DNA of 59,012 nucleotides from Candidatus Daviesbacteria bacterium (GTDB lineage: Bacteria > Patescibacteriota > Microgenomatia > Daviesbacterales > UBA10151), in the NCBI GenBank assembly GCA_016195715.1, contig JACPZA010000032.1, positions 1 through 59,012 of the forward strand, read 5' to 3'. Shown piece by piece: positions 186-37,208 of this stretch (within the stretch, counting starts at the first letter, position 1; the number at the start of each line of letters is the position of its first letter). Below the pieces are notes generated by a model. The model was not told where the DNA came from. It saw nothing but the letters and a program-made list of their open reading frames with translations, and made no database searches. The position numbers and the translations under genes are program-made.

Positions 186-2972
186 ATGACTTTTGGAAAA
201 CTTACAGAATATTTTGAAAAGCTAGAGGAAACTTCAAGTAGGCTCTCTTTGATTGAAATCCTCTCTCAACTTTTTAAAGAAGTTGATGAAAAAGATATTG
301 CTAAAGTAGCTTACTTAATTCAAGGCCGAGTTGCGCCGTTTTATGAACCAGTGGAAATTGGCATGGCAGAAAAGAGTGTAGCAGCTGCAATTGCTAAAGC
401 TTATGGACTTTCTCGGGAAGAAGTTTTAGCTGAATATGGTAGAGTTGGAGATTTGGGTAAAGTGGCTTTGGAATTAGCCAAGAAAGCTCATGTTAAAGAG
501 CAAAACCAAAGCATAGCAGAGGTCTTTAAAGTTTTAACAGAGATTGCACATATTTCTGGTGAGGGAACTGTTGAAAAGAGGTTGAATTTATTAGTAGATC
601 TACTTTCTAAAGTTGATCCAATCTCTGCCAAGCATTTAGTTAGAATTCCTTTGGGTACATCCAGGCTTGGGATTGGTGACCCAACTGTATTAGATGGGTT
701 TGCAACAGCTAAATTAGGGGATAAATCAAAGCGCAAGTTGCTTGAGGGAGCATATAATAAAGTTTCAGATTTAGGGTTAATTGGAGAGACTTTATGGAAA
801 TCTGGGCTTAAAGGCGTTGAAAAATTAGATGTTATGGTTGGAAGACCCTTGCGTTCTCAATTGGCAGAAAGATTACCCACTCCAGAGAAAGTGATAGAAA
901 AATTTGAAGGCAAAGCTCATGTTCAATATAAATATGATGGGTTTCGCTGTGTAGGAGGTTTTACTCCAATATATGTAAAAGATAAGGGAATCACATCAAT
1001 GCGAGATCTTAGAGTGGGTGATAAAGTTTTAACTAAAAGTGGATCTTTCAAAACAGTTTTAGCCAAAAATAAAAGAACTATTAAAAAGAATGAAAAATTA
1101 TTTAAATTTCAAACCTACTTAGGTGAGAGTATCAAAGTTTCAGAAGGTCATCCCATACTGACATTTAAAGATGGTCAAGAAAAATGGGTAAATATAGAAA
1201 ATATCACAGCAGGAGATGAAGTAATTTTCCCGATTCCTCAATTTCCGCCCAATAATCCTCACCCAGCCCCAGAAAAATTAGACTTACAAACAATATCTGG
1301 CTACAAAAAAACTTTTCAATTAAATGAGAGTTTCTATCGATTTCTAGGATTCTGGATTGGTGATGGTTTTACTAATGATTATCATAACACTGAAAGAGTG
1401 GGATTATTGTTTAATGGAAAAACTGAGGTTGGGCTGGCAAGTTTTTATAAAAAAATAGTCACAGAAACTTTATTTATCCCAAAAATCTCTATTTCAAAAA
1501 CCGCCGCTAAAGGATGTTTAACTCTATATTGGCGTGATGAACCATTAAAACACTGGCTTTCAACTTATTTTAGAAGAGAGTGGGTGGGTAAAATGTTACC
1601 TGAATGGTTTGTACACGTAAGTAAGAAAAATTTCCAACAATTTTTACAAGGATGGATTGAGTCTGATGGGTCAGTAGATAAAGATGGAGTAACCAAAATA
1701 ATTACAAAAGAAAGAGATTTAGCTGCACTAGCTCAATTAATAGCATTATCCCATGGTATAGTTATTGGTTTACATTATATTAGAATTAAAAAAGCTCTGA
1801 AAGGAGCAATAGATAAAACTTATTATCAGCTAGTAATCCCAAAAACCACTAGAAAAGCATATATAAAAGATAATAAATTATTGGTTAAAGTTCTAAGAAA
1901 TGAGGAGATAAAAAGACGCGACTCGCGAATTCAGCTTTACGATATTCAAGTGCAAGATGAAGAAAGTTTTTGTGCTCCAATGGTAACTTTGCATAATTGT
2001 CAAATTCATAAAATGGATAAAAAAGTCAGATTATTTTCTAGAAACTTAGAAGAAACTACTTTAATGTTTCCAGATTTAATTCAAGGAGTATTAAATCAAA
2101 TTAAAGCTAAATCAGTTATTTTAGACTCAGAAGCGCTAGCTTTTAATCCAGAATCCGAAGAATTTTTACCATTTCAAGAAACTACCAAAAGAAGAAGGAA
2201 ATATGATATAGCAGAGATGGCTAAAAAGCTACCACTGCGGGCATTTGTCTTTGACATTATGTATTTAAATGGTCGTTCTTTAGTAGATTTGCCGCTAGCT
2301 GAGCGAATCAAGCTTTTAAAAGAAACAATTAGAGGAGATGAAGTTTTAATCCCCCAACCAGGTGAAATAACTTCTGATGCTAAAAGAGTGGAAACATTAT
2401 TTGATGATGCACTGACCAAAGGGTTAGAGGGTTTAATTGTTAAGCGCCCTGATTCAAAATATGAAGCTGGAGCCAGAAATTTTAATTGGGTAAAATTAAA
2501 ACGCCATTCAAATGGTGAACTTAAAGATACTATAGATTGTGTGATTTTAGGCTATATTTTTGGTCGGGGGAAAAGAGCAGCGTTTGGAGCTGGAGCTCTA
2601 CTCGTTGGAGTTTATGATAAAGCTAAAGATGAGTTTGTAACTGTTTCAAAAATTGGCACTGGTTTAACTGATGATGAGTGGCGAGAGATTCATAAACGTG
2701 CTGATAAAATTAAAGTTGATAAAAAGCCAGCCAGAGTTAATTCTTTATTAGTTCCATCTGTTTGGATTAAACCAGAGATTGTGATAGAAGTTTTAGCTGA
2801 TGAGATAACTAAATCTCCAACTCACACAGCTGGTAAAGATGAATCTGGAGTGGGTTATGCATTAAGATTTCCCAGATTGGTCAAATTTAGAGAAAAGGAC
2901 AAAACTGCTGAGGATGCAACTACTGTAAAAGAATTAGTTGAGATGTATGAGCAACAGTATTCTAAAAAATAA
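186..2972 (+). CDS. lig: ATP-dependent DNA ligase (archaeal/eukaryotic LigI-like, with N-terminal DNA-binding domain), intein-containing precursor
   Basis: Motif I KYDGFR, motif III LDSE, FVFDIMY, EGLIVK, WVKLK and C-terminal OB-fold LRFPR. Confidence 0.95.
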   Translation: MTFGKLTEYFEKLEETSSRLSLIEILSQLFKEVDEKDIAKVAYLIQGRVAPFYEPVEIGMAEKSVAAAIAKAYGLSREEVLAEYGRVGDLGKVALELAKKAHVKEQNQSIAEVFKVLTEIAHISGEGTVEKRLNLLVDLLSKVDPISAKHLVRIPLGTSRLGIGDPTVLDGFATAKLGDKSKRKLLEGAYNKVSDLGLIGETLWKSGLKGVEKLDVMVGRPLRSQLAERLPTPEKVIEKFEGKAHVQYKYDGFRCVGGFTPIYVKDKGITSMRDLRVGDKVLTKSGSFKTVLAKNKRTIKKNEKLFKFQTYLGESIKVSEGHPILTFKDGQEKWVNIENITAGDEVIFPIPQFPPNNPHPAPEKLDLQTISGYKKTFQLNESFYRFLGFWIGDGFTNDYHNTERVGLLFNGKTEVGLASFYKKIVTETLFIPKISISKTAAKGCLTLYWRDEPLKHWLSTYFRREWVGKMLPEWFVHVSKKNFQQFLQGWIESDGSVDKDGVTKIITKERDLAALAQLIALSHGIVIGLHYIRIKKALKGAIDKTYYQLVIPKTTRKAYIKDNKLLVKVLRNEEIKRRDSRIQLYDIQVQDEESFCAPMVTLHNCQIHKMDKKVRLFSRNLEETTLMFPDLIQGVLNQIKAKSVILDSEALAFNPESEEFLPFQETTKRRRKYDIAEMAKKLPLRAFVFDIMYLNGRSLVDLPLAERIKLLKETIRGDEVLIPQPGEITSDAKRVETLFDDALTKGLEGLIVKRPDSKYEAGARNFNWVKLKRHSNGELKDTIDCVILGYIFGRGKRAAFGAGALLVGVYDKAKDEFVTVSKIGTGLTDDEWREIHKRADKIKVDKKPARVNSLLVPSVWIKPEIVIEVLADEITKSPTHTAGKDESGVGYALRFPRLVKFREKDKTAEDATTVKELVEMYEQQYSKK
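948..1997 (+). mobile_element. 350-aa intein with LAGLIDADG homing endonuclease domain
   Basis: Begins with Cys (TGT at 948) after KYDGFR, ends TLHN, +1 residue is Cys. Removal restores KYDGFR-CQIHK. EGHP block B; LGFWIGDG and GWIESDG endonuclease motifs. Confidence 0.93.
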
Positions 2973-3011
2973 TTCTCTTTCCTTGCTTTTAATAAATTTT
3001 ATTGTAAAATC

Positions 3012-3881
3012 GTGCTTAATAAAGCAAGCATTATGCGATTTCCTGAAAGTAGATTAAATTATTTTAAAGAAGCTGGAGCATTACCAGCTAAAGCCTTAAG
3101 AGGTTTGTCAAAATCTTTTCAGTTTAGAAATCCTCTAAATAATATAAGCAGAGAAACTGCAATTTTAGCTACTATAGCTATTCCACTAATTGCAGCTTGT
3201 GGTTCGGTAGTTCCAGGACAAGAATCTTCTCCCAGATTAGATCCTACTATGACCATACCTCCTTTACCAACAATTGTTGCTAAACCGACAATCACATTTG
3301 AGCCAGTAGCAACACCGCTACCTTTGACTAAGCAAGAACTTATTTTTGCTCAGAGATTAAATGCCCAAGAACAGATAATTATTAAAAGTCATATTAACCC
3401 AGATTATTTAGCAAGTTTTAACATCGGTCCTGATCCAAAAGAGGATGGGATAGCTTGGTTCTGGTTAGCTAAATATAGAAATGGTCACCTCCAAAACTCA
3501 GCTCAAATTGGTAATAACAATGATCCGCAAATGATTTCTGTTGATATCCGTTATAAAGAAGAAATTCCTATAGAAGCTCAATTAATTTTAAAACTTGATC
3601 CTTTAGCAAACGGTTCAACTAAATCTTTTAAAGATGGTCAAACTCGCTATACAAAAGATAATTTTAAAGCTAGAGCAGCTCAAATTTTTAGATTGGAAAA
3701 TATTGATTGGAATAATTCAAGAAATCTCCAAGCTGCTAGTTTATCAAATAGTTCTTTAGATCCAATAAAATATAGTGGTTTTGCTACTAGCTATAATGGA
3801 GAAAAGTTGAATGTTACTATCAGCGCAAATGGGGTAGTGACACTTAGAATTAATAATCTTTATATGAGTCCCTTTCAGTAA
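3012..3881 (+). CDS. Hypothetical lipoprotein-like protein (start may be ATG at 3033)
   Basis: Long ORF; hydrophobic stretch ending LIAAC followed by a Pro/Thr-rich linker. Confidence 0.65.
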   Translation: MLNKASIMRFPESRLNYFKEAGALPAKALRGLSKSFQFRNPLNNISRETAILATIAIPLIAACGSVVPGQESSPRLDPTMTIPPLPTIVAKPTITFEPVATPLPLTKQELIFAQRLNAQEQIIIKSHINPDYLASFNIGPDPKEDGIAWFWLAKYRNGHLQNSAQIGNNNDPQMISVDIRYKEEIPIEAQLILKLDPLANGSTKSFKDGQTRYTKDNFKARAAQIFRLENIDWNNSRNLQAASLSNSSLDPIKYSGFATSYNGEKLNVTISANGVVTLRINNLYMSPFQ

Positions 3882-4695
3882 GAAATCTCCTAAAAAAAAG
3901 CGCCTGACTGTTTTGAAAAGTTTGTTGCTTTAAGTCATTTGGATCAATTTTTAACAACTTAGCTAAAAACTCAGCAATAATATTTAAATTAGCTGGAGTG
4001 TTGGGAAATTTTAAGCCAGTTGGGAGTAAATAGGGGGAGTCAGTTTCTAAAACTAGTAAATTTAAAGGAATTTTTTTAACAAATTCTTGTTTGGCTTTGT
4101 CATATGTTATATCACCATCGATTCCTATAAAAATTTGATGGGCTTTGGCAAAAGCTAGCAGTTTTTGATCTGGTTCACAGCAATGAAAAACAGTTTTACC
4201 TTCTAAAGATTTATCCCAATTTTCTTCTAAAACTTCTAGTGTTTCTTCTACAGCTTCTCTATTGTGAATAATTAGGGATTTTTGGTGCTTTAGGGCTAAT
4301 TTAATTTGTGCTGCAAAAGCTTTTTTTTGTAAATTAATAAATTTTTCAGTGATCTGATAGTTTTTATGTTTAGTTTTTTGATAAACATGTCTATCCATTC
4401 CAACTTCTCCAATAGCAACAACTTTATTTTGAGTTATCAGCTCTTCAACTTTTTTTAAATGCTCATCTAAAACTTCTGGAGTGTCATGATGTTCAAAAAT
4501 ATGGTGAGGGTGAATCCCAACAGCAGCATATAAGCAGTCTATTTTTTGAGCTAACTCAACAGCTTTTTTGGAAGTCTTAACATTTGTCCCTACTACAATC
4601 ATTTTCTCAACTCCAGCTTTTAGCGCTTCTTTAATAACTTGATCTACACTATTTTCAAAAGCACGAAACTGCAAGTGAGTGTGGGTATCAATCAT
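3850..4695 (-). CDS. tatD: TatD-family DNase
   Basis: IDTHTHL, GIHPH, AIGEVGMD, IIHNRE, VFHC and ETDSPYL motifs. Confidence 0.93.
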   Translation of the reverse strand: MIDTHTHLQFRAFENSVDQVIKEALKAGVEKMIVVGTNVKTSKKAVELAQKIDCLYAAVGIHPHHIFEHHDTPEVLDEHLKKVEELITQNKVVAIGEVGMDRHVYQKTKHKNYQITEKFINLQKKAFAAQIKLALKHQKSLIIHNREAVEETLEVLEENWDKSLEGKTVFHCCEPDQKLLAFAKAHQIFIGIDGDITYDKAKQEFVKKIPLNLLVLETDSPYLLPTGLKFPNTPANLNIIAEFLAKLLKIDPNDLKQQTFQNSQALFFRRFLTERDSYKDY

Positions 4696-6043
4696 TTTTT
4701 AGTTTGGAAAGTTTAGGATAAATGGCGGAAATTAAATAGAGAGAACCAGTTATTACAACTTTTTTTTGTGAATCATTTATTATACTTTTTAAAGCTTGAT
4801 TTGGGTTTTTAATTACTTGGTAATTATTAAAATTTAACTGATCTAACTGTTGTGTTAAAAAGTCAGCACTCTCAGAATTATGTTGACCATGCTGAACAAC
4901 TGCAAACTCAGTTATTATAATTTTTGCTGCTAAGGGTGTAATAGTTTTTAACATTTTAGTAGAATCTTTACCTTTAACAAAGTTGGTTAAAAACTCAAAT
5001 TTAGTGTTGGGAAAAATCTTTTTTAGGCTTGAAACTAGACTTTCCATTTTTTGAGGATTATGTGCTCCATCAACAATTAAAATCTTATTTTTCAGTTTGT
5101 ATATCTCAAATCGTCCGATAAATAAGGCTGAATTAAGAGCCTGGCGTATTTTATTTTCATGGAATAAAAACTTGTCTCTGTTGCTTAAAATAATTACTGC
5201 AACCAGAGCTAAACTAGCATTTTCTATTTGATAATCACCAATCATAGATAAAGATAGATTATTTAATTGCTGATCTAGAAAATTGAAGTTAAAGAGGGTG
5301 TGTTCGAGGTTACTCTCAATTATTTTGTAATTTTTGAGAGGTTCAATTGTATATAAATGAGCTGATTTTAAAGTAACTGTATTTTGAATTATTTTTTGAG
5401 CTTTCGGTTGTTGTAAAACCGTAATGACTAAGTTTTTTTGTTGAATAATTCCAGCTTTTTGAACTGCTATTTTATCAATTGTATCTCCTAAAATATCGGT
5501 ATGATCTAATCCAATTCTGGTTATCACTGAGAGTTTGTTTGGATTATTAACTGCGTTTGTTGCATCAAATAGACCTCCTAAACCAGTCTCTATAACTGCA
5601 TAATCTAGTTTGTCTTGATAAAAAATATCAAATGCTAAAGCAGTGGTAATTTCAAAGAAACTTAGTTCCCCAAAATCAGATTTTTCTGTTTTCTCTATTA
5701 TTGGGATTAATTTATTTAAGTAATTTATAAATTTTTGTTCTGAGACTAGTTTGTTATTAATTTGGAAACGCTCTCTTAAATTAACGATATGTGGTGATTG
5801 GTATAAGCCAGTTGTTTTTCCTAGAGAAATTAATAAATGACTAATCAAATAAGAGGTTGAACCTTTACCAGATGTTCCAGCTATATGAATAACTTTTATT
5901 TTTTCTTGGGGATTATCCAGTAACTTAAGAAAATATTTTAATCTGTCTAAACCCCAGTTTCCTTGGTATTTTGAATTATAATTTTGAGGAATTTTGGAAA
6001 TTAAATAATTTTCTGCCTCCAAAAAAGTTTTAAATTGATTCAT
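4688..6043 (-). CDS. folC: Folylpolyglutamate synthase/dihydrofolate synthase
   Basis: HIAGTSGKGS, SPH..ERF, ETGLGG.DATN, DHTDILG, DGAHNP and TGSLY motifs. Confidence 0.93.
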   Translation of the reverse strand: MNQFKTFLEAENYLISKIPQNYNSKYQGNWGLDRLKYFLKLLDNPQEKIKVIHIAGTSGKGSTSYLISHLLISLGKTTGLYQSPHIVNLRERFQINNKLVSEQKFINYLNKLIPIIEKTEKSDFGELSFFEITTALAFDIFYQDKLDYAVIETGLGGLFDATNAVNNPNKLSVITRIGLDHTDILGDTIDKIAVQKAGIIQQKNLVITVLQQPKAQKIIQNTVTLKSAHLYTIEPLKNYKIIESNLEHTLFNFNFLDQQLNNLSLSMIGDYQIENASLALVAVIILSNRDKFLFHENKIRQALNSALFIGRFEIYKLKNKILIVDGAHNPQKMESLVSSLKKIFPNTKFEFLTNFVKGKDSTKMLKTITPLAAKIIITEFAVVQHGQHNSESADFLTQQLDQLNFNNYQVIKNPNQALKSIINDSQKKVVITGSLYLISAIYPKLSKLKND

Positions 6044-6568
6044 TTATATAATTTGGTATTTTAATAATAATGTTCCTTGTTGATTTAATTTTTCCAGACT
6101 TTTTAATTTTAAATGAATATCAAAATTTTCCTCTGTTACTAAACCATTGCCCTCTCCAAAAACTAATGGTTCTATAGTTAGCCAAAGTTCATTAATTAAT
6201 TTGTCTTTAAAAAATTGGCTATTTAGATCTGCTCCACCAAGCAAGAGCAGTTGTTTATAGCCTAATCCAGTTAATCTTTGTATTAACTTTTTTGGTAGTT
6301 CTTCGCTAAACTCAAGTTGATTTTTGACTGCCAACTTTTGATAAATTTTTGGAGATTTTGTTAAAACTATTCTTAAAATATTAGGTTTTAATTGAATAAT
6401 AGATTTAGCAGCTTCGTAAGTTTTTCTTCCCATGACAATTAAGTTTTGAGAATTAATTAGTTTATGTAAATATTCCTTATCTTCTTTAGAATTCCACTGT
6501 CCAGGAGGTAAACTACCCTTTGTAGATTTACCATTAACTGATGTCACCATTGCTAAAATTATTTTCAT
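6044..6568 (-). CDS. Dihydrofolate reductase / RibD C-terminal family protein
   Basis: SVNGK, MGRKTYE, LLGGA and INELWLTIEPLVFGEG motifs; abuts folC. Confidence 0.8.
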   Translation of the reverse strand: MKIILAMVTSVNGKSTKGSLPPGQWNSKEDKEYLHKLINSQNLIVMGRKTYEAAKSIIQLKPNILRIVLTKSPKIYQKLAVKNQLEFSEELPKKLIQRLTGLGYKQLLLLGGADLNSQFFKDKLINELWLTIEPLVFGEGNGLVTEENFDIHLKLKSLEKLNQQGTLLLKYQII

Positions 6569-6593
6569 AGTAGCTATTGTAACAGGATTAAAT

Positions 6594-7250
6594 TTAGGCA
6601 GGAAGAAAACTTTTGGGAAGAAGGTTTTTGTGAGTTAAAAAGTTTAGTAGTTGTTTCATTACTAAATATGATCCAGCTATGCCTAAAGCAAACAGAGTTC
6701 TTTCTTCAATTACTACTGGAATTAATCCTTGCCAGATGGAAGCTGGCAAATTAAATGCCCAAATCCAAGCTGCACCACCAACTGAGTGAGCTGTAAATGT
6801 TGATCCCAAGCTTTTAATTAATAAATTATTTCTTTTAAAGTAAGCAATCAAAGGAATTGTCCAAAATAGTGCAAAATACCAAACTTGTTTGCCAACCGGG
6901 TTTGCCCAAAAAGCTAGGATAGCTAAGATTGGTACAAGTAAAATTAGCTTGGAATAATTATTTTTCTTTTGGATAAGGGAAAAATATAACAGCGCAAACA
7001 GCACTGGAAATAATCTAATTAACACTCCAGTTGTTAGGGATGTGTGTTTAATGAGTAAATTTATAATTTCAATTCCTAAAACTGAAAGCACCCCAAAAGC
7101 TGATCCTAAAAAAGCCCCAGAGATTGGTCCAAAGAAATCAAATAAAGTAAATGAAACATTTGATCCAGCTAGTTTGGTAAAAGGAATTTGCAAAGTTATA
7201 AAGCCTAGAACACTAAATATTGCAAAAAAGATCAGCTGTTTAGTTTTCAT
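6594..7250 (-). CDS. Multi-pass membrane protein, possible ECF S-component-like vitamin transporter
   Basis: About 6 hydrophobic segments in about 218 aa; first gene of the DHFR-folC-tatD run. The function is inference. Confidence 0.55.
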   Translation of the reverse strand: MKTKQLIFFAIFSVLGFITLQIPFTKLAGSNVSFTLFDFFGPISGAFLGSAFGVLSVLGIEIINLLIKHTSLTTGVLIRLFPVLFALLYFSLIQKKNNYSKLILLVPILAILAFWANPVGKQVWYFALFWTIPLIAYFKRNNLLIKSLGSTFTAHSVGGAAWIWAFNLPASIWQGLIPVVIEERTLFALGIAGSYLVMKQLLNFLTHKNLLPKSFLPA

Positions 7251-7313
7251 TGCAGCCAAAGATTAATATATAAGGTTTAGATTGTCAAGATTGATGAGGT
7301 ATAATCAAAACCC

Positions 7314-8582
7314 ATGGCTTATGTTGCTGATTTACACATTCACTCCAGGTTTTCCAGAGCTTGTTCCAGTCAACTAAATATTCCAAATTTAGCAAAATGG
7401 AGTCAGTTTAAAGGGATTGATTTAATGGGCACAGGAGATTGCTTGCATCCCTTGTGGCAAACAGAGCTAAAGTCAGTTTTAAAAGATGTAGGTGATGGAA
7501 CTTATCTTTATGGTGGAACCAAGTTCATTTTAACTACTGAAGTAGCTTGTATTTACTCTGAGGGAGGCAGCGTCCATCGGATCCATATCTTAATTTTTTT
7601 ACCAAGTTTAGATTCTACCTTTAAACTTTCTGAAGTTTTAACTAAAAAAGGAATTAATTTAGTTTCAGATGGCAGACCAATTATGGGGATGAGCACTAAA
7701 GCTTTGTGTGAAATAGTTTTTAGCGTTGAACCAAAAGCATTGATTATTCCAGCCCATATTTGGACACCTTGGTTTTCACTTTTTGGGTCAGAGTCTGGAT
7801 ATGATAAATTTTCAGATTGCTTTGGTGATTTTTCAGATCAAATTTATGGAATTGAAACTGGCTTATCAAGTGAGCCAGCCATGAACTGGCGGGTTTCACA
7901 ACTAGATCAAAAATCCATTTTATCTTTTTCAGATGCCCATTCTTTGCCTAGATTGGGTAGGGAAGTCACTATCTTTGGTGGGCAACCCTCATTTTTGGAT
8001 TTGAGTAAAGATTTAAAACTTAAAAATATCATTGGCACAATTGAATTTTTTCCAGAAGAGGGTAAGTATCATTATTCAGGACACAGAAATTGTAATGTAG
8101 TTTATTCCCCTGAAGAGTTAAAGCAAAAAGGCGAGGTCTGCCCAGTTTGTAAAAAAAGATTAACTGTTGGGGTAATGGCGCGAGTTGAGGATTTGGCAAC
8201 TAGGACAAATGAGCAGTTAGAAATTATCAATGATAGTGGAGTTATTAAATCAAAAGCTTATCCCAAAAGAGCTGGTTTTAGAATGTTAGTTCAACTAGAA
8301 GAAATTTTAGCAGAGAGTTTAAATTCTAGTGTTTCATCACAAAAGGTCAAAGATTTATATCAAAGATTAGTCACAACTCTTGATCCAGAATTAAAAATTT
8401 TAACTAAAACTAAAATAGAATTAATTGCTATGTCTGCTGGAGAAAAAATAGCTGAGGGTGTGAAAAGAGTAAGAGAAGGGAAGTTAACTATTGAACCAGG
8501 CTATGACAATACCTACGGCAAGGTCAAAATTTTTAATGAGGAAGAAGAGAGTAAAAAACAAGAACAAATCAGTTTATTCTGA
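7314..8582 (+). CDS. Endonuclease Q family (PHP domain plus Zn ribbon) protein
   Basis: DLHIHSRFS, PAHIWTPW, ETGLSS, FSDAHS, GKYHYSGHRNC and CPVC motifs. Confidence 0.85.
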   Translation: MAYVADLHIHSRFSRACSSQLNIPNLAKWSQFKGIDLMGTGDCLHPLWQTELKSVLKDVGDGTYLYGGTKFILTTEVACIYSEGGSVHRIHILIFLPSLDSTFKLSEVLTKKGINLVSDGRPIMGMSTKALCEIVFSVEPKALIIPAHIWTPWFSLFGSESGYDKFSDCFGDFSDQIYGIETGLSSEPAMNWRVSQLDQKSILSFSDAHSLPRLGREVTIFGGQPSFLDLSKDLKLKNIIGTIEFFPEEGKYHYSGHRNCNVVYSPEELKQKGEVCPVCKKRLTVGVMARVEDLATRTNEQLEIINDSGVIKSKAYPKRAGFRMLVQLEEILAESLNSSVSSQKVKDLYQRLVTTLDPELKILTKTKIELIAMSAGEKIAEGVKRVREGKLTIEPGYDNTYGKVKIFNEEEESKKQEQISLF

Positions 8583-23605: not shown

Positions 23606-25247
23606 CTAAGTAAAGTACAAATTCAACTTGAGATGGATTAGTGTGGGATTTAATTAAAATTGGGATATTTAAGTGGCTAGAAATAGTTTTTGCTATAAAC
23701 CCTTCTAAACCACTACCAAAGTTTAAGTTACTACTTTCAAAACTTTGTCCATAATATTCAGATAATAATAAATCTTGATCGTGTTGACTCTGAATGAGTG
23801 GGTAAGATGCGCTGATTGTTAAATTAATTAATAAATTGTTAGTGTGAGATAAATAAATTCTTGAGTAGGGATTTTTTTGATTTGAAGCAAGTAGTAAACA
23901 AATATCTAATAATTTATCAACCATTAAGCTAAACCATTTAACACTTAGGGGTACCAAAAAATCTGAGCTTGGTAAAAAGTTGTTGTTAGATAAAGTAGTT
24001 GGTTTTAAAGCCAGCAGCGATTTTTCTCTGGTTTCTTTTTCTGGCAGAAGTAACTTTAAATCCACCCCCAGGCTTTGAGCAAGCTTCAGTTTTTGGTTTT
24101 TTAAATCTCTTAACAAAGCTGCTACATCTATTAAAGTGATTTTTTCATCCATAGAGTGATCCTCAAGTTCTATGGCATTAAGCAGATCTTGTTCATTTTT
24201 CTCAAGCAGCAGGCCGATTATATTAGTGGTATGGGAAGAAGAGACGTTGCTAGTCAGTATTTTTTGCAGTGCTTGAAATCTTAAACTCTGTCTTTTTTTG
24301 GCTTCTTCAATATTCAAATGAGTTGAAAGGTCACCAATCCGATTACCCTCAGTGATGACAAAAGATAGCTGATCAACTTTTGCCTCAGCATCTTTAATAG
24401 GTCTAATTTGAACTGTAATATTAAAGGGAATTACTCGAGCCGGAGTATAGAGCAAAAAACCGCTGACAATTCTAGTATTGCCTTCGACTAAAACTTTATC
24501 GACAGACAAAGATTGTAAACTAGCATCTTTGCCAAAATTATCTTTAATTTTAACTATATCTAACATATTTTTATTAGCTACTTCTGCATCATTTAGATTA
24601 AACATCCTTTTAACTGCCTCGTTAACAGAGATAATTTGCAAGTTAGTATCTGTGACTATAACTAATTCATTTAAACTTTCTAATATTGATTCACCAACCT
24701 TAACTTGTTTAGAAAGGATTGAAGACAGCTGCTCTTTTAAGTGATATTTACTAGCAAGCAAGTTGGCTAGGGGAATAATTACCACCATTGATGCAAAATA
24801 GAGCAAAACTGTCCCTGGATCATCTTTAATTAATCTTAGTTGGTCAGGGTTAATCCAAAGATTAGTTATGAGTATTAGCAAAGAAAAAGTTAAAAAAGAG
24901 ACTGAGGATTTTAAACTAACTAAAAAACTTGTACCCAGTGTAAATAAATGCAACAAAATCAAAAATGGGCTGTAGATTCCACCAGTTGAAAAAACTAATA
25001 ATTGAACAATCAGTGCACTAATAAAAAGAATCAGGTAATTTAGAATAGAGGATAGTTGATTTTTTGAGCTAATTTTTGCAGATCCAGAAAGGATCCGACT
25101 GAATCCAATCAACAAAGCAATCATCAAAACTACAATAATTTGCTGATATGTAGTAACTGAGATTTTGAAATAAAGTAAAGATAGGGTTATTAAAGCTGCT
25201 AGAGATAATACAAATGGTTCAACTAAAGTTTTAAAAAACTTGGGCAT
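23589..25247 (-). CDS. Multi-TM PAS sensor with degenerate histidine-kinase domains (start probably MPKFF at 25247)
   Basis: About 6 TM segments; PAS motif ILESLNELVIVTDTNLQIISVNEA; HATPase remnants LLDIC and GSGLEGFIAK. Confidence 0.7.
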   Translation of the reverse strand: MPKFFKTLVEPFVLSLAALITLSLLYFKISVTTYQQIIVVLMIALLIGFSRILSGSAKISSKNQLSSILNYLILFISALIVQLLVFSTGGIYSPFLILLHLFTLGTSFLVSLKSSVSFLTFSLLILITNLWINPDQLRLIKDDPGTVLLYFASMVVIIPLANLLASKYHLKEQLSSILSKQVKVGESILESLNELVIVTDTNLQIISVNEAVKRMFNLNDAEVANKNMLDIVKIKDNFGKDASLQSLSVDKVLVEGNTRIVSGFLLYTPARVIPFNITVQIRPIKDAEAKVDQLSFVITEGNRIGDLSTHLNIEEAKKRQSLRFQALQKILTSNVSSSHTTNIIGLLLEKNEQDLLNAIELEDHSMDEKITLIDVAALLRDLKNQKLKLAQSLGVDLKLLLPEKETREKSLLALKPTTLSNNNFLPSSDFLVPLSVKWFSLMVDKLLDICLLLASNQKNPYSRIYLSHTNNLLINLTISASYPLIQSQHDQDLLLSEYYGQSFESSNLNFGSGLEGFIAKTISSHLNIPILIKSHTNPSQVEFVLYLVRKAQ

Positions 25248-25678
25248 ATCTTTATTGTATAGCTTAAGTTTTAAATAGCCAACTCTTATGGATGGTTGAC
25301 TTATAGATTCTAATAGTTTAAAATCTTTTTTGTTCCAAAATTTGGAGCAGACTGGAGCAAGTTCCAACTCAAGAAAGAATACTACTCATTCAGTTTAGAC
25401 CAGATAGGGTCTCTTCGAATTAATCGGAGTCATAGTTCTTTAACAACCGAAATAGTTTCCACTTTTTCGGTTTTTTTGTGCCCGAAGAAGTGGTGGGAAA
25501 TTTTTGATAAGTAAGTCAACTTGTCAATTCCGAGCAAGCTACAATCGTAACACTTTAAATAAGTGCTGCGAGGAAGAGCTTTGCTCATTCCAAAAAACAA
25601 CAATGAATTCTGTATTTTTTTAAATGCAGTGTTTTTCTGTTTCAGGAAATTTAAAAAGAAATCTTTTGATTTCTTTCT

Positions 25679-25721
<43 letters not shown>

Positions 25722-26688
25722 TAAGCATGCAAGTCGAATGGTCGCAAGACAATGGCGGACGGGTGAGTAACGCGTGGGAATCTACCTTGAAGTGGGGTAT
25801 AGCTTGCCGAAAGGCGAGGTAATACCGCATATGATCGTAAGATCAAAGTCGCAAGACGCTTTAAGATGAGCCTGCGTCCTATCAGCTAGTTGGTGGGGTA
25901 ATGGCCTACCAAGGCAACGACGGGTAGCTGGTCTGAGAGGATGGTCAGCCACAATGGAACTGAGACACGGTCCATACATCTACGGATGGCAGCAACTGGG
26001 AATATTGCGCAATGGGCGAAAGCCTGACGCAGCGACGCCGCGTGGAGGATTGAAGGCCCTCGGGTTGTAAACTCCTTTTATGTGGGAAGATTATGACGGT
26101 ACCACAAGAATAAGCACCTGCTAACTACGTGCCAGAAGCCTCGGTAATACGTAGGGTGCAAGCGTTATCCGGATTCATTGGGCGTAAAGAGTTGCGTAGG
26201 CTGTCCGATGCATTTTGTTTGAAAAGCTATAGCTTAACTATAGTTTCGGGCAAAATATGATCGGACTAGAAGGATTAAGAGGGTATTGGAACCGATTATG
26301 TAGCAGTGAAATGCGTTGATATGATCGGGAACACCAAAGGCGTAGGCAGATACCTGGTAATCCCTTGACGCTGAGGCACGAAAGCTTGGGGAGCGAAGCA
26401 GATTAGAGACCTGCGTAGTCCAAGCTGTAAACTATCTTCGCTAGATACCCGAAATTTTTTGGGTGTCGTAAGCTAACGCGTTAAGCGAAGCGCCTGGGGA
26501 GTACGATCGCAAGATTAAAACTCAAAGGAATTGACGGGGAGGCGCACAAGCAGTGGAGCGTGTGGTTTAATTCGAAACAAAGCGAAAAACCTCACCAGGG
26601 TTTGACATGCAAATGCTAATCCCATGAAAGTGGGACTCCTTCGAGGGTTTTGCACAGATGCTGCATGGCTGTCGTCAGCTCGTGGCGT

Positions 26689-27524
26689 GGGATCTGAAAT
26701 AAGATCAATCGCGCCCACCTACAGTAATGTAGGATGGAAAATTTGGCTCATATCGGTGAAGCAATTGACTTTCGGGTTATCTTAGGATAATCTAAAATCA
26801 TGTAATACCGAGGGAAGTCAGGAGTATGATATTTACAGCTCGTAAAAACCTAAAACTTGAAGTTTCTAATCGTCAAATAGAAATTCTTGTTGGTTGTTTG
26901 CTCGGTGATGCCTATCTAACTAAGTTAGGTAAAATTCAAATTGAGCAATCAGCGAAACAAAAAGAGTATATAGATTGGAAATATCAAGAACTTGCCTCTA
27001 TTAGCTATTCCCAACCTAAAATAGTTATCCGTTTTGAAAAAAACGAAAGTCGAGAAACTAAGTCATTAAGATTTTGGACTCGTCAATATTTTAGAAAATG
27101 GAGAAATAGTTTTTATCAAGGAAATCGCAAAGTTTTCCCAAAAGATTTGATTGAATGGATAACTCCTTTGGCCGTTGCCGTTTGGTATATGGATGATGGT
27201 TGTTATCAGAAATTTGATTGTACTTTATCTACAGAGTCATTTGATTTTGAAAGTAGGGAACAATTGATCAATAAATTTCAGTCTTTTGGAGTAGAGGCGA
27301 TTCCTAGAGGAAAAGGTAAGTTAAGGATTAAATCTAAAAGTTTAATCAAGTTTTTTGAGCTAATTAATCCTTATATGCATTCGAGTATGAGGTATAAACT
27401 TCCTTGACCCCGTAACGACTAATATGTGAGGTACTAGATAATCTAGAAGTAAACTTACATTATACGCCGAACATCCTTTATTAGGATGAAGGGATAGTCT
27501 AAATGTTGTCGTAAGACAATTTTG
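26689..27524 (+). mobile_element. 836-nt group I intron after the E. coli U1078 equivalent
   Basis: Exons rejoin as GCTCGTGGCGT|GAGCTGTACCGTTAAGTC. The 5' exon ends in U pairing with IGS GCGCC (26711-26715) through U.G. P7 is GACTA (about 27416) with TAGTC (about 27495); terminal G at 27524. Confidence 0.9.
26826..27407 (+). CDS. Intron-encoded LAGLIDADG homing endonuclease (LAGLIDADG_2 type)
   Basis: ILVGCLLGDA and LAVWYMDDG motifs; lies between the intron Q-like and R elements. Confidence 0.9.
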   Translation: MIFTARKNLKLEVSNRQIEILVGCLLGDAYLTKLGKIQIEQSAKQKEYIDWKYQELASISYSQPKIVIRFEKNESRETKSLRFWTRQYFRKWRNSFYQGNRKVFPKDLIEWITPLAVAVWYMDDGCYQKFDCTLSTESFDFESREQLINKFQSFGVEAIPRGKGKLRIKSKSLIKFFELINPYMHSSMRYKLP

Positions 27525-28148
27525 GAGCTGTACCGTTAAGTCGGGAAACGAGCGCAACCCGCACCGTATGTTAAATAGTTCATGCGGAACTGCCTCATTT
27601 TTTGAGGAGGAAGGCGCGGATGACGTCAAGTCAGCACGGCTCTTACACCCTGGGCTACACACACCCTACAATGGATAGTCACAACGAGTTGCAAACGGGT
27701 AACCGTAAGCTAACCTCTTAAAACTATCCTCAGTTCGGATTGAGGTCTGCAACCTGACCTCATGAAGTCGGAATTGCTAGTAATCGCGAATCAGCATGTC
27801 GCGGTGAATACGTTCTCGCCTCTTGTACACACCGCCCGTCAAGGCAGCAAAGTTGGGGGCACCCGAATCCCGGATTTATTCGGGAGAAGGTGAAACCAGC
27901 GATGAAGCTTAAGTCGTAACAAGGTATCCCTAGCCGAAGCTGGGGATGGATCACCTCCTTTCTGGAGTTTTGATTAAGCTGGAGGATTTCATAAAACCCC
28001 GCGGAGCTTTTAGCAAAGTGGGGAATGATAGCCATAGGCTTAGTCCATGATCACCTTCACGCTAGATCTAAGTAATTAGAGCTAAATGGTGATAGAAGTT
28101 TGAGAGTCTTCTTTAAAAAGCTCTCCCCACCACTTTTTTGGACACAAA

Positions 28149-32779: not shown

Positions 32780-33778
32780 ATGATTGAAACAAAAAATGTA
32801 CTTCCAGGCAGAAATCCAGAATGGTATCCTGTCTATCGCTTAAAGTTACTTAAGCCCGATCAAATGGAACTTTTAGCTGAGGTAACAAAATACCCTGGTC
32901 TTTTAAAATCATCTTTTAGATTAACAAGGGCATTAGGAATGCCCAGAGTAGTTTTGACACGTAGTTTATCAGAGCTTTGTGGTGTTTTAGGAGCTGATAG
33001 GTGGGAAGCAACTGAACTTTACCAAAGATTTACTGATGTGCAAGTACCAACAGATTCTGCCACGGTAGAGCAAGTTATGACAATAGATTACTCATTAGCT
33101 CCTAAAGAAGAAAAGATATTAAAACTAGCAGCATTAGGTTTTAGCGTTCAAGAAACTGCCAATACTTTGAATACAGGTGTAGAGAATATTAAGAATGTGC
33201 GTACAAGAATTCTGAATAAAATGACAGCACCAACTATGGTTGAAGCAGTAATAAAAGGGATAGATACGGGTAAGATCGATCCAGAGGAGCTAGTTGAAGG
33301 TTATGATATCACTAGGTTTGATAATTTAACTATTTCGGAACTTGTTCTGCTTGCAACCTTGGTTGAACAAGCTAGAAGAGATTTAGCTGATAAAACAGTT
33401 AAAAACCGCATAGCAGATCTCTATAAAAAAATAGGAATTAATCCTAATAGAGCTAGATTAGCTGGGCTTTTTCGTAGTTATCAGATTTTTTTAGAGCAAG
33501 CAGATGTACCAAAAACCACAGAGACTAAACAACAACTTGCTTTTCTAACTTATGATCAATTACGCTTAATAGAAGCTTTAATCGCTGGCACCAGATTAGG
33601 AGATTCATCAAATCGATATATAGCAGATATCATGGGTTTACCAGTATCAACGATCAAACGTAGATTATATGACATCTTTGCTGTTTTAGGAGTTAATTCA
33701 AGGTATGAATTAGCTAGTAAATATTTGACTAATAGATTACCTACTCAAATAAATAACAACCAAAATGGTGTTTATTAA
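32780..33778 (+). CDS. Transcriptional regulator built from tandem LuxR-type HTH units
   Basis: LAPKEEKILKLAALG.S..E.A..L..G...IK....RI..KM and LT..QL..I..L..G..SNRYIA..MG...TIKRRL..IF..LGVNSR units. Confidence 0.75.
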   Translation: MIETKNVLPGRNPEWYPVYRLKLLKPDQMELLAEVTKYPGLLKSSFRLTRALGMPRVVLTRSLSELCGVLGADRWEATELYQRFTDVQVPTDSATVEQVMTIDYSLAPKEEKILKLAALGFSVQETANTLNTGVENIKNVRTRILNKMTAPTMVEAVIKGIDTGKIDPEELVEGYDITRFDNLTISELVLLATLVEQARRDLADKTVKNRIADLYKKIGINPNRARLAGLFRSYQIFLEQADVPKTTETKQQLAFLTYDQLRLIEALIAGTRLGDSSNRYIADIMGLPVSTIKRRLYDIFAVLGVNSRYELASKYLTNRLPTQINNNQNGVY

Positions 33779-34128
33779 TTTATTTAATTTGACAACCTCA
33801 TAATTCTAGATCTATAGTAGATTTGTAGGGGGTGAGAGCCATGTATTTTGGCAGTGATCCATAAATCCCTAGCTTCAGACTTTAATAGCCTTAATTTTAA
33901 GGCTTAACTCAAAGAAAAGAATTTTTTCGTCTGCACTCTTTTCTTAAAGCTAATATTCAAGCTTAAACTTACAAGCTTTAAAATTGAGGTTTAAAACTGC
34001 TTTAAATAGCAAATTTTCTATTAGCTTTAATTCTAGAAATAAAGCTACTTAGTTAAATTTAATTTTTTCCTTTAAATTAGGAAGGTATTTTTTTGATTAA
34101 ACAAAGTTGAAAAGTTTACTCAAAGAAA

Positions 34129-34639
34129 CTAGTCTAAATAATCTCTAAATTTTTGTAAAACTGCTAGATTTCTCAGCTTAAGCAGAGCTACTCTTTCAAT
34201 TTGATAAACTCTATCTCTGCCAATTGCTAATTCCTCACCAACTTCTCTTAAAGTCATTTCTGGTTTGCCATTTAAACCAAACCTCATTTTTATAACTTGT
34301 TGTTCTCTGGTTAGCTTGTAGATTAGGATCTACTAACTCTTTTTTAGCTGTCACTCCTCGTTCTAAATCTTGAGCTAATTTAATTTCTTCTCTAGCTGTT
34401 AGTAAAGGGATTCTAGAAATCTCATTCAAATAAAGAGCTAAAGGAGTTAGTAATTCATCATCATCTTCAGCTTGTCTTTGAACAGGCCTTTTTTGTACTA
34501 ATAATACAAGAGGTCTAGCAGCCTCAGTAATTGGATCACCTCCTTCAATATTTTGGTAGTGTCTAAAACCATTTACTAAAGCTGGAGCTGGTTCAACCTC
34601 AGTAAATAATAAGCCATTTGGTTCAAATTCTGCAGTCAT
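34129..34639 (-). pseudogene. Internally deleted sigma70 paralog: region 1.2 joined out of frame to region 4; regions 2-3 absent
   Basis: Frame 1 encodes LALYLNEISRIPLLTAREEIKLA. The +1 frame from about 34308 encodes REQQVIKMRFGLNGKPEMTLREVGEELAIGRDRVYQIERVALLKLR..RDYLD, stop at 34129. Confidence 0.85.
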
Positions 34640-34668
34640 AAGATGAATTTTTAAGTTATTAGGATAGC

Positions 34669-35658
34669 CTAAATTAGATATTTAGTCCACCTAGCAAAAA
34701 TTCCAGTGGATAATAATCTGTTGCCAGAACTCTCTTTTAAAGCCAGCTCTCCAGATTCAATTTGTCCCCCCAAAGAACCTACAAAATCCTTTAAAATATT
34801 TTCTAGCATTAAAGATGAAGAAGAAATAGCATAAGCATTAACTATTACAAATAGCGGGTTAGGAGAGAGAAGTTGGGTGCAAATATCTAAAAGCTCTGGG
34901 AAGTTTTTATTAAAATCCCACACTTCACCCTTTGGTCCATGCCCATAAATTGGTGGATCCATTAAAATTCCATCATATTTCACGCCTCTTTTTAACTCTC
35001 TTTGAACAAACTTTAAGCAATCATCTAGAATCCAGCGAATCGGTTTGCCTTCTAAGTTAGAAAGCTTTTGATTTTCCCTGGCCCAACCAATAGTGGGGTA
35101 AGAGCCGTCAACATGAGTGACTTTTGCTCCAGCTTTGGCTGCAACTAAAGAGGCAATACCAGTATAGCCAAAAAGATTTAGGATATTAGGTTGATCTAGA
35201 CGGGGTCCTGCCAGCTCGCAGCCCCATTCGACCTCCTCGGATGCACTGCGGGGGCTCAATGGGGCGCCCCGCTTGCTGTCACCCCTCTGCAGCCTTTTCT
35301 GAATTAATTCATTTATCCACTCCCAATGAACAGCTTGTTCTGGGAAAACACCAGTGTGTTTAAAAGGGGAAAGCTTAATTTGAAAAGATATATCCTGATA
35401 GTTTATAACCCATTTTTCAGGTATATTTTTTACTCGCTTCCAAATACCTCTTATGTTAGGGCTTTTAGGGCTGTTTGGAGATGAAGTACTATAAATTGCG
35501 TCAGCTTTTTGCCACTTTGACTTAGCTAATTTTGGTTTCCAAATAATTTGCGGATCTGGTCTAACTAAAACAAATTTGCCAAACCTCTCCAGCCTTTTTC
35601 CATCACCAGAATCTAGTAATTCATAGTCTGATAAGGAATTTGAGGCCAGTATTTTCAT
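34669..35658 (-). CDS. Class I SAM-dependent methyltransferase (RlmI/RlmK-related), start MKILAS at 35658, with an in-frame insertion
   Basis: YELLDSG..RLERFG, TGVFPEQ, LNLFGYTG and DPP..G motifs; TAATG coupling to the sigma factor stop. Confidence 0.85.
   Translation of the reverse strand: MKILASNSLSDYELLDSGDGKRLERFGKFVLVRPDPQIIWKPKLAKSKWQKADAIYSTSSPNSPKSPNIRGIWKRVKNIPEKWVINYQDISFQIKLSPFKHTGVFPEQAVHWEWINELIQKRLQRGDSKRGAPLSPRSASEEVEWGCELAGPRLDQPNILNLFGYTGIASLVAAKAGAKVTHVDGSYPTIGWARENQKLSNLEGKPIRWILDDCLKFVQRELKRGVKYDGILMDPPIYGHGPKGEVWDFNKNFPELLDICTQLLSPNPLFVIVNAYAISSSSLMLENILKDFVGSLGGQIESGELALKESSGNRLLSTGIFARWTKYLI
35200..35284. repeat. GC-rich structured intragenic element, copy 1 (antisense to the host CDS)
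   Basis: 74/82 nt identical to 51570-51651; read as GDSKRGAPLSPRSASEEVEWGCELAGPR inside the methyltransferase. Confidence 0.9.
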
Positions 35659-37208
35659 TAGTCTATGTATTCTCTTAATTTGCATGCTTGAGCTGGTAGG
35701 CGTAATGCAGTGAATGCCTCAGATTCAATTTGTCTAACTCTTTCTCTTGAAACACCTAATTCTTCTCCAACTTCGCCTAAAGTTCTTTCTCTGCCATCAA
35801 TTAAACCATATCTCAGGCGAATAACTGCTCTTTGTCTAGGAGTTAAAGAGTCTAGAACATCCGCTAACTCATCCCTTAGCCTTCTTTTCGTGACAAGCTC
35901 TACCACGGTGGGCGCATTGCGATCCGCAAGCAGATCAGCCCAAGTTAAATCATCTTGTTCTTTAATTGGAGCGTCTAAAGAAACTGTTTGTTTCTTTGCT
36001 GCCCTTATTTTAGTAATTTGCTCTAGAGTAGTGTCTAAAGCTTTGGCTAACTCCTGATTAGTTGGATTTCTGCCTAATGCTCCTCTAAGTTGACTTTCTG
36101 CACCACCTAGCTTACCAATGGCTTCTACCATATGGACTGGTATTCTAATAGTTCGGGATTTTTCCGCTATAGCTCTTGTAGCAGCTTGTCTGATCCACCA
36201 ATAGGCATAAGTTGAGAATCTATAACCTCGCCTCCAGTCGTATTTTTCAACTGCCCGTCTTAAACCAATATTTCCTTCTTGAACTAGATCTAAAAACTCA
36301 AAACCTCGTCCTAAATATTTTCTAGCTACTGATATAACAAGTCTTAAGTTACTTTCAGTTAATCTCCTTCTGGCCTCATCAGATAAGTTTACATATTCTG
36401 CTAATTGCATATTCTGAGATTGATCTAGACCTGCTCCAGCTAATTGAATTCTAGCTGTTTCACCAATTTCAATAGTCTTAGCTAAAGCAACCTCTTGTTC
36501 AGCTGTTAAAAGCGGAGCTTGTGATGCATCTCTTAAATATAAAGCCGCAATATCACCTGGGTCATCTTCTGGAAGGTTACTTAAGCTAAATTCGCGCTCT
36601 AGTGCTTGTAATTCTTCAGAGTTTGGTTCATCCTCTGCTAGTTCTAAATCATCATTTTCTTGATCAAAACCATTTAAAGATTGACTATGTAACTCTTCAG
36701 CAGGTATTTTTCTTAATAGAGAGGTCAGGGTTAGTTTTTCTATACCATTTTTATGATCAACATGATCTCCTAAAAACCAAGCTCGTAATAAAGCGACATC
36801 TTCAGGCAGGTCTGAAGGATTTAGATCATCTAATTTTAATTTCTCATAACCATCCATAATGCCTTTTAAAATATTAGATCCATTTGTGGTTCTGCTGGAT
36901 CTAACTAAACGTTGGTTATTATAAGTTTCTATTAGAGAACCATGGAAATCCCGGACGATGTCATCAATTGTTGGATAGTAATAGTCGCCTTCATCATTAC
37001 TAGATGCTGCAGCGACAAAGCTCAAAAGTCCGTATGGTGTATAGCCTCTTCTTTTTCTGGCTAGTAAGATAGTATTTTTTAGTTCAGGCGCCTTTATATC
37101 AAAAATTGTCGGTAAAATCCTAAGCGGACTAAGCTTAGTTGAACTTACAGCATCAGCTATATAAGCTGCTAGTCTTGGTGGATATAGCCTCTCATGCACT
37201 AGTGACAT
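35658..37208 (-). CDS. RpoD-like sigma70 factor with atypical N-terminal extension
   Basis: Region 1.2 LYLRD..PLLT, NLRLVISVA, DLVQEGNIGL, FSTYAYWWIRQA, RTIRIPVH and region 4 TLGEVG..VSRERVRQIE. Confidence 0.93.
   Translation of the reverse strand: MSLVHERLYPPRLAAYIADAVSSTKLSPLRILPTIFDIKAPELKNTILLARKRRGYTPYGLLSFVAAASSNDEGDYYYPTIDDIVRDFHGSLIETYNNQRLVRSSRTTNGSNILKGIMDGYEKLKLDDLNPSDLPEDVALLRAWFLGDHVDHKNGIEKLTLTSLLRKIPAEELHSQSLNGFDQENDDLELAEDEPNSEELQALEREFSLSNLPEDDPGDIAALYLRDASQAPLLTAEQEVALAKTIEIGETARIQLAGAGLDQSQNMQLAEYVNLSDEARRRLTESNLRLVISVARKYLGRGFEFLDLVQEGNIGLRRAVEKYDWRRGYRFSTYAYWWIRQAATRAIAEKSRTIRIPVHMVEAIGKLGGAESQLRGALGRNPTNQELAKALDTTLEQITKIRAAKKQTVSLDAPIKEQDDLTWADLLADRNAPTVVELVTKRRLRDELADVLDSLTPRQRAVIRLRYGLIDGRERTLGEVGEELGVSRERVRQIESEAFTALRLPAQACKLREYID

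Follow-up and report, generated by a model that had tools for sequence, protein, structure and literature searches.

A probable pseudogene remnant of a primary-like sigma-70 paralogue in a Candidatus Daviesbacteria genome

A short locus on the minus strand (34129..34639) of a contig from a Candidatus Daviesbacteria bacterium is probably a pseudogene remnant of a primary-like sigma paralogue, which would have arisen most simply by one out-of-frame internal deletion. The locus lies in the window analysed here, a stretch of 59,012 nucleotides, and its host is a tiny groundwater bacterium of the CPR, with a genome of 1.15 Mb, 36 contigs and 34% G+C. Compared with full-length relatives, about 190 codons are missing at the scar, from region 2.1 to the start of region 4.1, and the frame break and the domain-loss junction coincide to within about seven codons. 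We infer that one event lies behind both lesions, that this event was recent, and that the products of the locus have no function.

Results

Table 1. Positions in the window of the parts of the sigma locus and of the genes beside it
Feature	Position	Strand	Evidence and remarks
Region 4 (4.1, 4.2 HTH and primary-sigma C-terminal tail)	34129..34308	minus	+1 frame; TAG stop 34131..34129 included
Out-of-frame tail of the 134-aa ORF	34235..34318	minus	QANQRTTSYKNEVWFKWQTRNDFKRSW and TGA; region-4 DNA in the wrong frame
Deletion scar and frame-change window	34309..34330	minus	GATCCTAATCTACAAGCTAACC; three-frame translation and alignments
Authentic 5' part of the former sigma gene	34319..34639	minus	Residues 1-107, ending …DLERGVTAKKELVDPNL; translation and alignment
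TAG in the region-4 frame	34330..34332	minus	Frame 2 translation, …KKS, two stops, ILIYKLT…
A6 run (GCT AAA AAA GAG)	34340..34345	minus	Sole homopolymer nearby
Sigma70_r1_2 (PF00140)	34444..34352	minus	Six-frame genome search, 45.9 bits
134-aa ORF	34639..34235	minus	ATG 34639, TGA 34237..34235; ORF listing and translation
SAM-dependent methyltransferase gene	34669..35685	minus	Pfam Methyltrans_SAM; directly upstream of the remnant
Intact 516-aa primary-like sigma	35658..37208	minus	Pfam regions 1.2, 2, 3 and 4 all present; divergent from pgk

From its ATG, the 134-aa ORF consists of an orphan N-terminal stretch of 65 aa, region 1.2 and then a helix. In a protein-level Pfam search, residues 66-96 matched Sigma70_r1_2 with 43.9 bits (E = 2e-11), a score on par with those of intact sigmas, and the G-x-x-A-[KR]-x-x-L helix after region 1.2 stands at the same spacing in the remnant as in the aligned family sigmas. 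Beyond ...AKKELVDPNL the ORF reads QANQRTTSYKNEVWFKWQTRNDFKRSW up to its stop, and translation and alignment to the family sigmas revealed no sigma similarity in this tail. The original prediction, that the ORF carries region 1.2 and then runs into nonsense, was thus borne out. No relatives of the N-terminal 65 aa were detectable by a length-padded protein search or by HMMER against 1.84e9 representatives.

A region 4 free of stops was likewise predicted from about 34308 in the +1 frame, with RDYLD before the stop, and it was found as described. The +1 frame has 66 open codons (34329..34132 on the minus strand) before its stop at 34131..34129, and its translation is ILIYKLTREQQVIKMRFGLNGKPEMTLREVGEELAIGRDRVYQIERVALLKLRNLAVLQKFRDYLD. 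This frame matches Sigma70_r4 of Pfam over HMM positions 8-50, with 47.9 bits and an E-value of 1e-12, and both Pfam matches at the locus (region 1.2 and region 4) are far above chance. The C-terminal tail, …LRNLAVLQKFRDYLD and stop, that is, ...FRDYLD and stop, resembles the ...LREYID and stop of the intact sigma at 35658..37208. The recognition helix of region 4.2 reads RDRVYQIE in the remnant and RERIRQIE in at least 95% of the family. Apart from an internal ATG at 34287, the region-4 frame lacks a start codon and a ribosome-binding site; this ATG has no Shine-Dalgarno sequence, and the ORF that begins there encodes 52 aa (Pfam, 35.6 bits) with helix 4.1 cut off. A 22-nt inverted repeat (33971-33992 and 34279-34300, 86% complementary, 286 nt apart) joins the AT-rich spacer downstream of the remnant to the region-4.1 coding DNA, and probably reflects chance in AT-rich sequence.

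The place of the frame change can be bounded on both sides. On the upstream side, the region-4 frame ends at the TAG at 34332..34330, so that the change must lie 3' of it; the first clearly homologous region-4 residue is the R of REQQ (HMM position 8), at 34308, and the change therefore falls within 34329..34309, where the two frames overlap as ATC CTA ATC TAC AAG CTA ACC and GAT CCT AAT CTA CAA GCT AAC. In the scar window, frame 1 reads D-P-N-L-Q-A-N and frame 2 reads I-L-I-Y-K-L-T. When 75 full-length family sigmas were aligned, the frame-1 peptide proved homologous through the post-1.2 helix, and the frame-2 peptide from R-E-Q-Q onward. The two pieces joined amount to 170 aa, compared with 381 aa in the closest relative, and the string GCTAACCAGAGAACAA is present at the junction. 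Six-frame searches of the whole genome matched PF04542 (region 2, which serves core binding, -10 recognition and melting) at three places, none of them within 34129..34639, and PF04539 (region 3, which sigmas of groups 1 to 3 are expected to have) had no match at the locus in any frame. The LT-REQ of the remnant is one residue shorter than the L[ST]PRE of the aligned relatives. The two losses first noticed at this locus, that of regions 2 and 3 and that of a residue of the usual LTPRE at the junction, are consequently both upheld. The reading frame is disrupted at the deletion junction (34329..34309), and region 4 is present out of frame with the rest, unlike in a functional sigma-70.

Signals that might join the halves were sought in and around the junction. 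In the 21 nt of the frame-change window (34329..34309), homopolymers do not exceed two nucleotides, and neither a zero-frame stop nor a known slippery or +1 heptamer motif is present. At the A6 run, stops follow in both alternative frames (…KKS and two stops in the region-4 frame), so neither ribosomal or transcriptional slippage nor a miscall there can join the halves, and frame rescue at this run was ruled out. With no slippery or stop-codon motif in the 21 nt and no rescue at the A6 run, the suggestion that a frameshifted product serves as a decoy found no backing. The collections searched contained no relatives of the locus in which a frameshift site might be conserved. Consensus scans of 33600..34800 revealed no promoter or terminator of note, and Rfam and repeat scans of the same interval yielded nothing informative. 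No remnants of other genes were found in the 350-nt AT-rich spacer at 33779..34128.

The ATG of the remnant lies 29 nt behind the stop of the methyltransferase gene, on the same strand; the remnant ORF is probably still transcribed, and the 134-aa product may still be made from it. The pgk-sigma arrangement recurs on contig G001:C33 (pgk 71% identical, sigma 381 aa) and on the metagenome contig L105 (OBEQ011615059.1), where a pgk with 70% identity and a sigma of 513 aa are followed by a methyltransferase 71% identical to that of the window; the sigmas of both contigs are positional orthologues of the 516-aa sigma. L105 has no sigma remnant, and a short spacer and convergent unrelated genes follow its methyltransferase. 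Either the remnant is thus confined to this lineage, or the other lineage has lost it. The methyltransferase of the window is 26 aa longer than its counterpart at L105:3977-4915, exactly around 35200-35284, where the counterpart has no insert. Convergent with the remnant is a gene for a 332-aa protein (32780-33778, plus strand), a singleton at 90% identity, with Pfam matches to GerE/LuxR in two stretches and to Sigma70_r4_2, and with three LuxR/region-4-like repeats recognizable by eye. In a few relatives, rpoD is followed by genes for a response regulator and a kinase; synteny with these was considered and rejected: the arrangement is not conserved, and the regulator of the window is not the best match.

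Over the 88 alignable columns of regions 1.2 and 4, the remnant is 58% identical to the sigma of G001:C33, 50% to its own neighbour, the 516-aa sigma, and about 47% to the standard RpoD. The agreement with the G001:C33 sigma comprises 21 of 29 positions in region 1.2 and 30 of 59 in region 4. In a tree the remnant adjoins G001:C33 with weak support, the next enclosing splits having values of 59 and 52. These comparisons point to a diverged paralogue of the fast-evolving pgk-linked primary-like type. Like the remnant, the G001:C33 sigma and the 516-aa sigma possess a …LR(D/E)Y(L/I)(D/E) tail before the stop and the G-x-x-A-[KR]-x-x-L helix after region 1.2; unlike them, the remnant lacks regions 2.1-3.2 and the start of 4.1, and has its region 4 in another frame. 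Two other origins were rejected. The remnant is not a recent tandem copy of the neighbouring sigma: the two are only 45-48% identical at the protein level in regions 1.2 and 4 (BLASTP) and share one DNA match, of 95 nt and 74%. Nor is it the housekeeping RpoD of the family, displaced by the paralogue, since the paralogue type is closer (58% versus 47%) and the missing rpoD is best explained by an assembly gap.

The pgk-linked sigma evolves very fast. Its representatives (35658-37208; L105:2414-3955; L101:7496-8641) are 34-50% identical between genomes, and the flanking pgk and methyltransferase about 70%. Some of these sigmas have long non-homologous N-terminal extensions (total lengths of 516 and 513 aa, versus 381 aa), and in the L105 sigma Pfam detects no region 1.2 and only a weak region 4 (27.9 bits). 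Elsewhere in the genome, contig C2 (5456-6976, plus strand) encodes a divergent sigma-like ORF of 506 aa, in which a long insert separates a region 2 of 46.5 bits from a weak region 3, and a region-4 HTH stands at the end. A 1.2-like segment in this ORF (LQLYLEEVELYPRLN) is similar to the one in the L105 sigma (LALYLRSLDFYPRVD), and directly before the ORF stands a response-regulator gene with 70% identity to a counterpart in the relative G005. In the family as a whole, tandem sigma paralogue matches were found on G004:C2 (five, at 2700-7500, L083) and on G047:C16 (three, at 24100-27700, L082), and six sigma matches contain in-frame stops, including G014:C19, G044:C2 and G090:C40. From the tandem arrays and the stop-bearing matches, a high base rate of birth and death of sigma paralogues follows for this family.

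The highly conserved standard rpoD of the family (about 365 aa) is absent from the assembly, which was scored 99.5% complete. In all 12 of the 12 relatives' loci examined, rpoD lies directly behind a gene of about 600 aa, which we take to be dnaG; neither this dnaG-like gene nor a Pfam DnaG_N domain is present in the assembly. Primase is essential, and the dnaG-rpoD operon therefore most likely lies in an assembly gap. The sigma inventory of this genome is thus incomplete.

No protein with the architecture of the remnant was recovered. When the fused 170-aa sequence was compared with 5.8e9 clustered proteins, ordinary full sigmas with four regions were the only matches; a length-padded protein search with residues 1-108 gave nothing; and HMMER with the ORF against the 1.84e9 representatives returned the ORF itself and region 1.2 of ordinary RpoD genes or fragments. 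The short region-1.2 proteins among the HMMER matches proved to be contig-end or frameshifted fragments of ordinary RpoD genes. A metagenome contig scan with the orphan N-terminus also gave nothing. The 40 relatives and about 96 family genomes contain full-length sigmas only, with no truncated sigma among them; two region-3/4-only ORFs (G001:C73 and G020:C27) that might have passed for mini-sigmas are both cut by contig ends. Only one contig in the protein collection has the 134-aa ORF, and at 90% identity among 15 billion proteins the ORF is a singleton, as are the intact sigma, the LuxR-like neighbour and the FabD-like acyltransferase gene. A search of the literature for truncated sigmas or sigma paralogues of CPR bacteria gave nothing specific.

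Both halves have remained open. Coding periodicity is intact in each half in its own frame, with G+C contents at the three codon positions of.58/.35/.11 (5' part) and.51/.29/.17 (region-4 part). When neutral substitutions were simulated, both halves stayed free of stops with a probability of 0.79 for a divergence of 1%, 0.29 for 5% and 0.09 for 10%. By this simulation, the intact frames mean only that less than roughly 10-15% neutral divergence has accumulated since the deletion. Stop-free halves and periodicity would also fit selection. The undecayed state of the halves had been put forward as a sign of a functional decoy; with a probability of 0.29 at 5% neutral divergence, it says little for that idea. 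The recognition helix departs from the family at three of the 12 columns conserved in at least 95% (E to D, R to Y among the changes), and is the third most deviant of 75; these changes fit relaxed constraint, the numbers being small.

Discussion

The history that we prefer would begin with a second primary-like (group 1/2-type) sigma-70 gene, once situated downstream of the pgk-linked sigma and the methyltransferase gene. Some 0.57 kb of its interior would then have been deleted, between a point just after region 1.2 (the start of 2.1) and the start of 4.1, a length that was not a multiple of three. Translation from ATG 34639 would now yield 107-111 authentic residues and 23-27 out-of-frame residues before a stop, and region 4 would be left untranslated in the +1 frame. 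A single deletion of this kind explains the loss of regions 2 and 3, the frameshift and the one-residue-short LT-REQ together. Because clamp-helix binding and -10 recognition both require region 2, no product of the locus can act as a sigma. A deletion pseudogene was also the simplest reading in the original prediction, and it is strengthened by the frame break at the domain-loss junction, by the lack of conserved truncated relatives in the collections searched, which contain no genome of the same genus, and by the absence of the element from the closest syntenic contig.

A longer history with the same end is possible, though we regard it as unlikely: an in-frame deletion would first have produced a mini-sigma of about 170 aa joining regions 1.2 and 4 (…AKKEL-VDPNLxKLT-REQQ…), which was later broken by an indel of 1 or 2 nt, placed between CTA (34321..34319) and AAG (34317..34315), so that the locus would still be a pseudogene. 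Aligned with the helix before region 4.1 (eleevLdsLsp), VDPNLQKLT adds 2.6 to 3.1 bits under the family HMM, compared with 0.9 to 1.4 bits for VDPNL as the continuation after region 1.2, and BLASTP of the artificial fusion carries the region-4 alignment back to KKELVDPNLQKLT. However, these increments differ by a few bits, which is not significant, and do not allow a finer placing of the junction. The G-x-x-A-K-x-x-L-x-D-P that follows region 1.2 matches paralogue L053 (EGRVAKDQLYDP) at equal spacing, and VDP may therefore be native post-1.2 sequence equally well. This history moreover needs two or three independent lesions within eight codons, not one, and its in-frame intermediate was found in no database searched.

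The fragments themselves might still be of use to the cell, the 134-aa protein or a region-4 peptide (arising through a +1 frameshift or from ATG 34287) binding RNA polymerase at the beta-flap or -35 DNA as a decoy, in an anti-sigma-like manner. A sigma region 4 on its own is able to bind the beta flap, and the two halves are open, score well in Pfam and keep their coding periodicity, in an operon-like position behind the sigma and methyltransferase genes. Nevertheless we judge such a role improbable. Open frames are expected of a young pseudogene; the ORF stood alone however deep the search; the 21-nt window offers neither a frameshift motif nor a stimulator, and TAG TAG lies in the way at the A6 run; a peptide from ATG 34287 would have no Shine-Dalgarno sequence to start it and would have lost helix 4.1; and residues that contact the -35 element are changed (RERIRQIE to RDRVYQIE). 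An assembly or consensus artefact, or a minority allele, in an organism that really has a full-length or in-frame gene, we consider very improbable. Such an error is conceivable in a metagenome-style assembly of 36 contigs that misses even the dnaG-rpoD operon. Yet the skipping of about 570 nt needs a repeat in the gene, and the only match elsewhere in the genome is the one of 95 nt and 74%; no internal direct repeat flanks the junction; and the contig runs on normally for more than 24 kb on both sides, so that assembly collapse appears unlikely from the sequence. An indel error in the consensus is also unlikely, because the frame-change window has no homopolymer longer than two. Least probable of all, and hardly to be expected, is a working mini-sigma, either as a fusion of regions 1.2 and 4 (through an unconventional +1 shift within 34329..34309, or in frame in the real genome) or as two fragments. 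If it existed, it would bind RNA polymerase or -35 elements but open no promoters, and would thereby compete, as a sigma derivative, with the neighbouring primary-like sigma.

On the preferred reading, the lesion is of an ordinary kind, in a family of genes with rapid turnover in this lineage. Mycobacterium leprae has many sigma pseudogenes, and with these and with G014:C19, G044:C2 and G090:C40 of the family the remnant shares a redundant paralogue, a simple lesion and other sigmas left intact; its lesion differs in being a large internal out-of-frame deletion instead of point nonsense, and both of its pieces are still clean. Programmed +1 frameshift genes of the prfB type (CUU-UGA-C) are similar in that a +1 change is needed to join the halves, but the remnant lacks a slippery codon with a stop or rare-codon motif and an upstream SD-like stimulator, and no relatives that conserve it were found in the collections searched. 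In Bacillus subtilis, SigO-RsoA is a split sigma of two subunits, and the remnant likewise has its sigma domains on separate small reading frames; in contrast to SigO-RsoA, no partner with region 2 is present at or beside the locus, apart from the complete 516-aa sigma. A region-4 HTH could in principle stand alone, as in the stand-alone HTH proteins of the GerE/LuxR type. In comparison with these and with SigO-RsoA, however, the region-4 frame of the remnant has no credible start, and there is no conserved family.

Conclusion

On the pseudogene reading, annotation should treat the deposited 134-aa "protein" as a fragment of a pseudogene and leave it out of any count of sigma or regulatory genes. 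If an in-frame or conserved version were to appear in close relatives or in reads, it would represent a natural sigma-derived decoy of RNA polymerase. As a pseudogene, the remnant would add another decaying paralogue to a CPR family in which extra primary-like sigma genes are gained and lost time and again.
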